DNA of 1,812 nucleotides, taken from the NCBI RefSeq assembly GCF_003334255.1, contig NZ_QOWU01000147.1. One strand, written 5' to 3'. This DNA is from Escherichia coli (GTDB taxonomy: Bacteria; Pseudomonadota; Gammaproteobacteria; Enterobacterales; Enterobacteriaceae). Shown in pieces: positions 1-1,812 of the stretch (the first letter of the stretch is position 1; the number at the start of each line of letters is the position of its first letter). The notes beneath the pieces were generated by a model. It did no database searches and had not been told where the DNA came from. It saw only the letters and a program-made list of their open reading frames with translations. The translations under genes were made by a program, and so were the position numbers.

Positions 1-1812
1 GAAGCACAAACGCGAGAATCCGCCCACGGTGGTATCGGAAGCCATGGCAGAACTTCGCGCCCTGCCCTCGTTTCTTGGCAACGTGCTCATTCGTGATCTG
101 GCGCGTTTAAACCGCAAACAACAAAGCGCCCGCAATGAAGGCGTGAAAAACAACAACACTCACGTGGCCGATAACTTCGTTCGCCGTGGACTGCGCACAC
201 GCCTGAAACGCATCGAACAGGTGAATGAATGCTTCGCCACGACGGCATTCAAAGCCACCGCAGCGCGTCATCGCCTTGATGAATTACTCATGCTGCCACA
301 ACTCAACCGTGATCAAATTCAGCGCCTTGCCACACTAACGGCGGCGGCATTTTCCACCGAACTGGAACGCATATGTGATGAAGTTACTGAGCGGACAGGA
401 AAAGGCGACGATAACCTGTTTACCTGGTTGCTGACTTACCAGCAGCTGGCGCGCATGGCAATAAAACTGGGCGTGAACCCACCATACTGGCCGTCACTCG
501 AGATCAGACGTGACCGCCGCACGGCACCAGACCCTGAACTGGTACCGGGCGCGGTAATGCGTATCACCTGCGCCACCTGGTGGAACAACCAGCTGCGCCA
601 CCTCGCTGATCTCTGGCGGGAGGAATTACTGCGTGCCGCCGGAAGAGTATCGCGCAAGGCATCCCCCTACATCAGCCATGAGTCACTCCAGGAATTCCGG
701 GAGAAACGCCAGCGCACCCGTGATTTTCTCAAAAGCTGGGACATTGAAAACGAAGACGGTGAACGCCTGAGCCTGGAGGACGTGTACTGGTCAGGGCTGG
801 GGAATCCGCGCAACCGCCGCAACGAGATGATGGCCTGCGTCAGAGGGATGGAACAGGTCGCCGAATCGCGTGGTGACTCCGCGTTCTTCGTGACAGTGAC
901 CTGCCCTTCCCGCTTTCACAGCGTAAACGAGGACGGCAGCCTGAACCCGAAATACAACGGTGCCACCGTGCGCGATGCCAGTGATTATCTGGTTTACGAC
1001 GTCTTTGCAGCTGCAAGAAAAAAACTCAACAAAGAAGGCCTGAGCTGGTACGGGGTGCGCACCGTTGAGCCACACCATGACGGCACACCGCACTGGCACA
1101 TGCTGGTATTCACCGCCCCGGACAATGAAGAACGCATCATTGAAATCATGCGTGACGCAGCAATCAAATCAGATCGCGCAGAACTGGGGAATGATATTTC
1201 TCCGCGCTTCAAGTGCGAAAAAATCGACCCGGCAAAAGGCACACCGGCAAGCTACATCGCAACCTATATTGGCAAGAACCTAGACGCCAGCACCTTTCAC
1301 GACAATGACCCGAAAACCGGCAAACCTTACGCCGATAAAGAATCGGGAAAAACCATGGCGGAAACCGTGGAAAACGCCATTGCCTGGGCGAGTCTCCACC
1401 GCATCCGGCAGTTCCAGTTCTTCGGTATCCCGCCCCGCCAGGTATGGCGTGAACTCCGCCGCCTTGCCGGACAAATGGAGCGTAACCCCGCATCACCGAA
1501 GCGCCTGGACCATGACGACATTGACACCATTCTGGCCGCCGCTGACGTGGGGTGTTTTGCCACCTACATCAACCGTCAGGGCGGCGTGCTCATTCCACGC
1601 AACCTGTACCTGATCCGCACCGCATACGAAACCGCAGATGAGGCCAACGACTACGGCGAATTCCCGCAGCGCATCTACGGAATTTGTGCCCCGTCGCTCG
1701 GCGAGCGCTACACCATCTGCACCCATCCGGACGAGTGGAAACTGGTCAGAAAAGAAGCGAAAGCCGACAACAGCACGGACGAGGATTTTGACGTTGGGGG
1801 CGGCTTCGCCGC
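1..1812 (+). CDS. A: Internal fragment (5' and 3' partial) of a P2/186-type phage replication initiation protein gpA, a rolling-circle HUH nicking endonuclease
   Basis: Seen in sequence: the frame with codons at 2-4, 5-7 ... 1808-1810 has no stop codon across the window, while every other frame is interrupted (longest alternative ORF about 100 codons). Codons are dominated by enterobacterial preferred ones (ctg, cgc, ccg, gaa, aaa, acc, ggc). The translation contains FFVTVTCPSRFH (884-919), EPHHDGTPHWHMLVF (1067-1111, HUH metal-binding motif H-W-H followed by hydrophobics) and SYIATYIGKN (1250-1279, tyrosine codons at 1253-1255 and 1265-1267, Y-x-x-x-Y spacing). Established knowledge: this three-motif arrangement defines superfamily I rolling-circle initiators (phiX174 gpA, P2 gpA); I recognise the HHDGTPHWH block as gpA-like from memory, not from a database search. 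The first in-frame ATG in the window is at 44-46 but the frame is already open from the window edge. Confidence 0.85.

Follow-up and report, generated by a model that had tools for sequence, protein, structure and literature searches.

The Phage_GPA proteins are among the HUH endonuclease families listed in a review, PMC5714925, which also defines motifs I to III and distinguishes one-tyrosine from two-tyrosine classes. Three conserved motifs are described in a paper on a P2-related Vibrio phage. The characterised prototype is the A protein of phage P2 (NP_046795.1, 761 aa), whose tyrosine pair is given as part of the active site in PMC3986222 (citing Odegrip and Haggard-Ljungquist, 2001). The A protein of phage 186 (NP_052289.1, 694 aa) has the same motifs, and a replication endonuclease of 940 aa is encoded by the P88-like phages (Xuanwuvirus; YP_009113059.1).

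We compared these proteins with the one encoded by the window, that is, the whole 1,812-nt stretch of Escherichia coli DNA analysed here. The encoded protein belongs to the same Pfam family as P2 A, with which it shares 32% amino-acid identity, and is 36% identical to 186 A. Among the proteins of deposited phage genomes, the P88-like endonuclease comes closest, at about 52% identity across 88% of the query. There is very little doubt that the window covers 603 internal codons of a gene A homologue from a P2-like (Peduoviridae) E. coli prophage, encoding a two-tyrosine HUH endonuclease. Its features are as follows.

2..1810, + strand: gpA-family replication endonuclease, internal fragment, codons 86-688 of 837 (open frame; identity to NZ_CP075697.1)
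311..1288, + strand: Phage_GPA (PF05840) domain, window residues 104-429 (Pfam hmmscan, E 1.6e-108)
884..910, + strand: Rep motif 1, FFVTVTCPS, aligning with P2 MFITLTAPS and 186 EFYTLTAPS; predicted beta-strand
917..919, + strand: invariant histidine H306 (SRFH), candidate extra active-site residue or metal ligand (H in 149/149 aligned members)
1067..1111, + strand: motif 2, E-P-H-H-D-G-T-P followed by the HUH triad H364-W-H366 and MLVF (alignment, conservation, strand in the model)
1238..1279, + strand: motif 3, GTPASYIATYIGKN, with the tyrosine pair Y418/Y422, aligning with P2 Y450/Y454; predicted alpha-helix
1289..1771, + strand: conserved C-terminal extension of the family core, residues ~430-590 (span of PHROG 91)
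1808..1812, + strand: first 5 nt (GCCGC) of a 30-nt P2-origin-like segment (aligned with the nick sites annotated in P2 and 186)

Family assignment and gene boundaries

Translation of the window gives 603 codons without a stop in frame +2 (nt 2-1810). Stops are numerous in both other plus-strand frames, and ORFs on the minus strand reach 102 aa at most. The minus-strand and alternative-frame ORFs, all of at most 102 aa and all inside the long ORF, were treated as chance. The Phage_GPA match of the 603-aa translation covers positions 1-320 of the 321-position model, and PHROG 91, 'nicking at origin of replication', matches residues 6-590 with an E-value of 1.6e-225. The first-pass annotation had named the gene a P2-type gene A initiator, and the HMM search that it proposed bears this out with a full-model match. 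Weak Pfam echoes of other HUH families were also found (REP_ORF2-G2P, E 3.9e-5; Helitron_like_N, E 0.0015).

A search without a profile, run against 1.84 billion cluster representatives (50%-identity clusters), recovered 2,571 family members at E<=1e-3. The gene is an already known, ordinary and RefSeq-annotated member of this large and well-known family. An NCBIfam scan of the translation returned no family at E<=1e-3. A PDB sequence search with the translation returned no match at E<=1, so that no solved family member is at hand to anchor individual residues. Rfam found nothing in the window at gathering thresholds. A scan for promoters and terminators gave one promoter-like site (0.6 expected) and six weak terminator-like sites confined to the minus strand (2.8 +/- 1.6 expected), which were judged uninformative inside a coding region.

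Both gene ends and the origin fall outside the window and are described here from near-identical loci. The window is 99.9% identical at the nucleotide level to E. coli STEC2018-607 (NZ_CP075697.1), with a single mismatch at nt 1526, and 17 complete E. coli genomes match it at 99% identity or more. The matching CDS in the STEC2018-607 locus (L001 hereafter) is WP_215771220.1, 'replication endonuclease', which occupies L001 19747-22260 and has 837 codons. The window therefore spans codons 86-688, with 85 codons upstream and 149 downstream, as in the other near-identical alleles of 837 codons. These values replace an earlier estimate of roughly 30 codons upstream and 125 downstream, which went wrong because P2 numbering had been transferred to a protein that is longer than P2 A (837 residues against 761), by about 53 residues ahead of the tyrosines and by about 23 behind them.

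Two features make the annotated start credible: a conserved N-terminal motif, AYPWNAP, follows it closely (AYAWNAP in P2, AFPWNAP in 186), and the start overlaps the stop of the upstream ORF, as is annotated for orf84/A of phage 186. The overlap is an ATGA at L001 19747-19750, shared between the start of gene A and the stop of a 138-codon hypothetical ORF, and it recalls the translational coupling annotated for 186 orf84/A.

Since the window contains neither a start nor a stop codon, lesions could lie outside it, and the 603 open codons might be the undamaged middle of a truncated or frameshifted gene A. The related alleles make such a pseudogene very improbable: six out of six E. coli alleles, at 79.8-99.9% nucleotide identity, are full length (836-839 codons) and free of stops, and RefSeq treats all of the 20 best matches listed in E. 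coli as ordinary coding sequences, labelled 'replication endonuclease', and none as a pseudogene. An intact gene A thus remains the preferred reading.

Catalytic motifs and predicted fold

Conservation was counted over the best 150 of the 2,571 family representatives, plus P2 and 186. Within motif 1, FFVTVT corresponds to residues 295-300 (nt 884-901), and the motif is conserved at F (143/149), at both T positions (147/149 and 145/149) and at P (148/149). In motif 2, HHDGTP (residues 358-363, nt 1073-1090) is followed by HWHMLVF (residues 364-370, nt 1091-1111). The histidines H364 and H366 are found in 149/150 and 147/150 sequences, while E356 and D360 are each found in 149/150. The tyrosines Y418 (TAC, 1253-1255) and Y422 (TAT, 1265-1267) form the string YIATY within GTPASYIATYIGKN and correspond to Y503/Y507 in the numbering of the full protein. 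Each of them is present in 151/151 sequences, and K425 is present in 150/151. The three motifs, at residues 295-300, 364-370 and 418-422, follow the I-II-III order of the HUH Rep class as defined in PMC5714925.

The alignment with the prototypes is in register. The string EPHHDGTPHWHM is unchanged between the window protein, P2 A and 186 A. Motif 1 and Y-[IV]-A-x-Y-I-x-K-N also correspond in P2 A, so that P2 Y450/Y454 align with Y503/Y507 of the full protein; the tyrosine pair in 186 is Y442/Y446. The 186 protein is shorter than the full-length window protein and has diverged from it in the N- and C-terminal regions. The first-pass annotation had placed motif 1, the HUH motif and Y-x-x-x-Y in one frame, in the expected order and without a stop, and every coordinate it gave is exact. 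It had also placed the P2 tyrosines near residues 450 and 454, in agreement with the P2 reference sequence (Y450/Y454), and the alignment with P2 and 186 gpA that it proposed as a check shows the catalytic histidine and tyrosine positions conserved.

One residue of motif 3 departs from the family. The position between the tyrosines, T421 (nt 1262-1264), gives YIATY where most members have YIAKY. Lysine occupies it in 141/151 family members, P2 A among them, and threonine is found in 7/151 distant representatives and in all six E. coli alleles of the lineage.

Near-invariant polar residues also occur beyond the three motifs, namely H306 (917-919), E356 (1067-1069) and D360 (1079-1081), none of which had been mentioned in the first reading of the sequence. 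H306 is invariant in a further family alignment as well. By their conservation, the three residues are candidates for a third metal ligand or for other roles in the active site.

The AlphaFold model is confident and places the motifs as an HUH fold requires: the HUH motif lies on a central antiparallel sheet and the tyrosines on an adjacent alpha-helix. The corresponding elements of the model are a strand at 293-299 (motif 1), a strand at 363-371 (motif 2) and a helix at 415-427 (tyrosines). In a Foldseek search against the PDB, HUH proteins top the list at non-significant E-values of 0.07-0.3, the best structural neighbour being the Helraiser Helitron transposase (7lcc). The solved HUH structures retrieved (Helraiser 7lcc, AAV Rep, MVM NS1, SIRV1 ORF119 and TnpA-REP) share 10-16% sequence identity with the window protein, at non-significant Foldseek scores, and differ from it in domain architecture and biological role.

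The C-terminal extension (residues ~430-590) is covered by no Pfam model; it is confidently modelled, and its residues W462, R483 and E484 are invariant across 104 sequences. Matches of family representatives typically span residues ~260-700 of the full protein.

The origin-like sequence at the 3' end of the window

A P2-type replication origin probably starts with the last five bases of the window. The position of the nick rests on the GenBank annotation of P2, which places it at 29892, inside gene A; the 186 site is annotated by similarity. In L001, the segment equivalent to the P2 origin is GCCGCACCTTGGACTCGTGGCAATAACTGT (21808-21837), which differs from P2 at 5 of 30 positions. The origin is seen in this near-identical locus, as the window itself holds only the first 5 nt. 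In L001 the predicted nick site falls inside gene A, as in P2, and lies about 6 nt past the 3' end of the window. The equivalent codons read ...APRSPVNNC in P2 and ...APWTRGNNC in the window lineage.

The candidate origin element of the near-identical locus, CCTTGGACTCGTGGCAATAACTGT, starts 2 nt after the window, as does the 28-nt core, CCTTGGACTCGTGGCAATAACTGTCCCC (window-equivalent position 1814). From window 1808-1812 the probable origin continues in L001 at 21813-21841. Among the four diverged E. coli alleles compared (dS 0.7-0.9, about 80-84% identical overall), no nucleotide-identical run is longer than this core. It is also identical in P88 and is the only run of at least 14 nt that the diverged E. 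coli alleles share with that phage. Identity of the core among the diverged alleles and P88 suggests a constraint on the DNA itself.

We tentatively propose that the window lineage and the P88-like phages might form a group of their own within the gpA family, with a distinct initiator-origin specificity. The proposal derives from the threonine that replaces a near-universal lysine between the tyrosines and from the origin core (CCTTGGACTCGTGG...), which differs from that of P2 (CCTCGGAGTCCTGT...). If it is true, the A proteins of this group would not act on P2 or 186 origins, nor would P2 and 186 A act on the origins of the group.

By homology with P2 A, we infer that the protein is enzymatically active and would work in the following manner. 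The HWH histidines, probably with a further conserved polar residue, would hold a divalent metal. One tyrosine of the helix-borne Y-x-x-x-Y would then attack a specific phosphodiester at the origin, which would sit in the same gene, a few bases beyond the 3' end of the window. The protein would become covalently linked to the 5' end, leaving a free 3'-OH to prime rolling-circle synthesis, and the second tyrosine would serve the cleavage-joining step at termination.

Selection and prophage context

The gene is under purifying selection, with pairwise dN/dS of 0.14-0.23 at dS of up to 0.9 among the six intact E. coli alleles. In near-identical loci it lies between the integrase/immunity region and the genes for portal, terminase and P2-family capsid, that is, in a P2-like early/replication region. 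In STEC2018-607 it belongs to a P2-like prophage adjoining dmsA, which contains an integrase, a repressor region, a 3'-5' exonuclease, a Dam methylase, SSB, portal and P2-family capsid genes, and baseplate, sheath, tube, D and ogr genes.

Gene A of the window lineage resembles its P2 counterpart in residing in a P2-like prophage. The neighbourhood differs in that no P2 B homologue is annotated near the L001 gene, where SSB, a 3'-5' exonuclease and a Dam methylase are found instead. P88-like phages have in common with L001 the small neighbouring genes for DUF4761, DUF4754 and a derepression protein. The C-terminus of the P88 protein is about 100 residues longer than that of the window lineage, and ParM-type partition genes come after the replication module of P88, whereas SSB and MarR genes follow in the window lineage. 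By megablast, deposited phage genomes match the window at 73-76% identity over 22-41% of its length, and thus no deposited phage carries the window allele.

A gpA-like HUH protein could also serve a plasmid, a phage satellite or a transposon-like element instead of acting as a phage initiator, a possibility to which the weak Helitron_like_N and REP_ORF2-G2P matches and the Helitron transposase as best structural neighbour might point. Phage_GPA, however, is matched about 100 orders of magnitude more strongly than the other Pfam families, and all 295 of the 295 E. coli matches to the window are chromosomal, with none on a plasmid. Moreover, both contexts examined have complete P2-like prophage layouts, and a P2-type origin sequence is conserved inside the gene. 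We rejected a plasmid, satellite or transposon origin on the chromosomal P2-like prophage context and consider it exceedingly improbable, leaving a phage initiator as the reading that we adopt.

Whether an intact gene A implies an intact phage is a separate matter. In the STEC2018-607 prophage, whose gene differs from the window at one nucleotide, the large terminase gene is frameshifted and the tail-fibre genes are present only as fragments (L001 26315-28047 and 39076-40080), and this copy is probably defective despite its intact gene A. By extension, the prophage that hosts the window could be defective as well, with the nickase an undecayed relic or kept for another reason, in which case the intact catalytic core would be uninformative on phage viability. 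We regard this as rather unlikely. A 99.8%-identical copy in strain EC2 sits in a ~38-kb prophage between tRNA-Leu and yecA, which looks complete, with a different integrase and no annotated pseudogene; the module, accompanied by different integrases, is found at two or more sites in the chromosome; and the low dN/dS also argues against a relic.

The first-pass annotation had taken the intact catalytic core as a sign of a functional or recently functional P2-like phage. Such a phage is plausible given the intact alleles, their dN/dS and the two chromosomal sites, but the window alone is insufficient for the claim and the closest prophage is damaged. An intact nickase does not by itself demonstrate that a prophage is viable, and that the source genome carries an active prophage is a supposition from these comparisons.

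Near-identical replication modules occur at two chromosomal sites with differing integrases and immunity regions (L001 11302-12294 versus L006 10874-11875), which indicates modular exchange among P2-like prophages. The presence of a near-identical module at both the dmsA and the tRNA-Leu/yecA sites indicates that the lineage moved recently, though single copies may be defective. For annotation, the practical gains are the corrected 837-codon boundaries, a probable origin located just past the 3' end of the window, and the marking of the window as part of a P2-like prophage replication module; importance beyond annotation is small.

Genes for Hok/Gef family toxins lie just past the ogr end of the prophage, with two copies in one genome and one in another (L005 7442-8054, L011 6135-6275).
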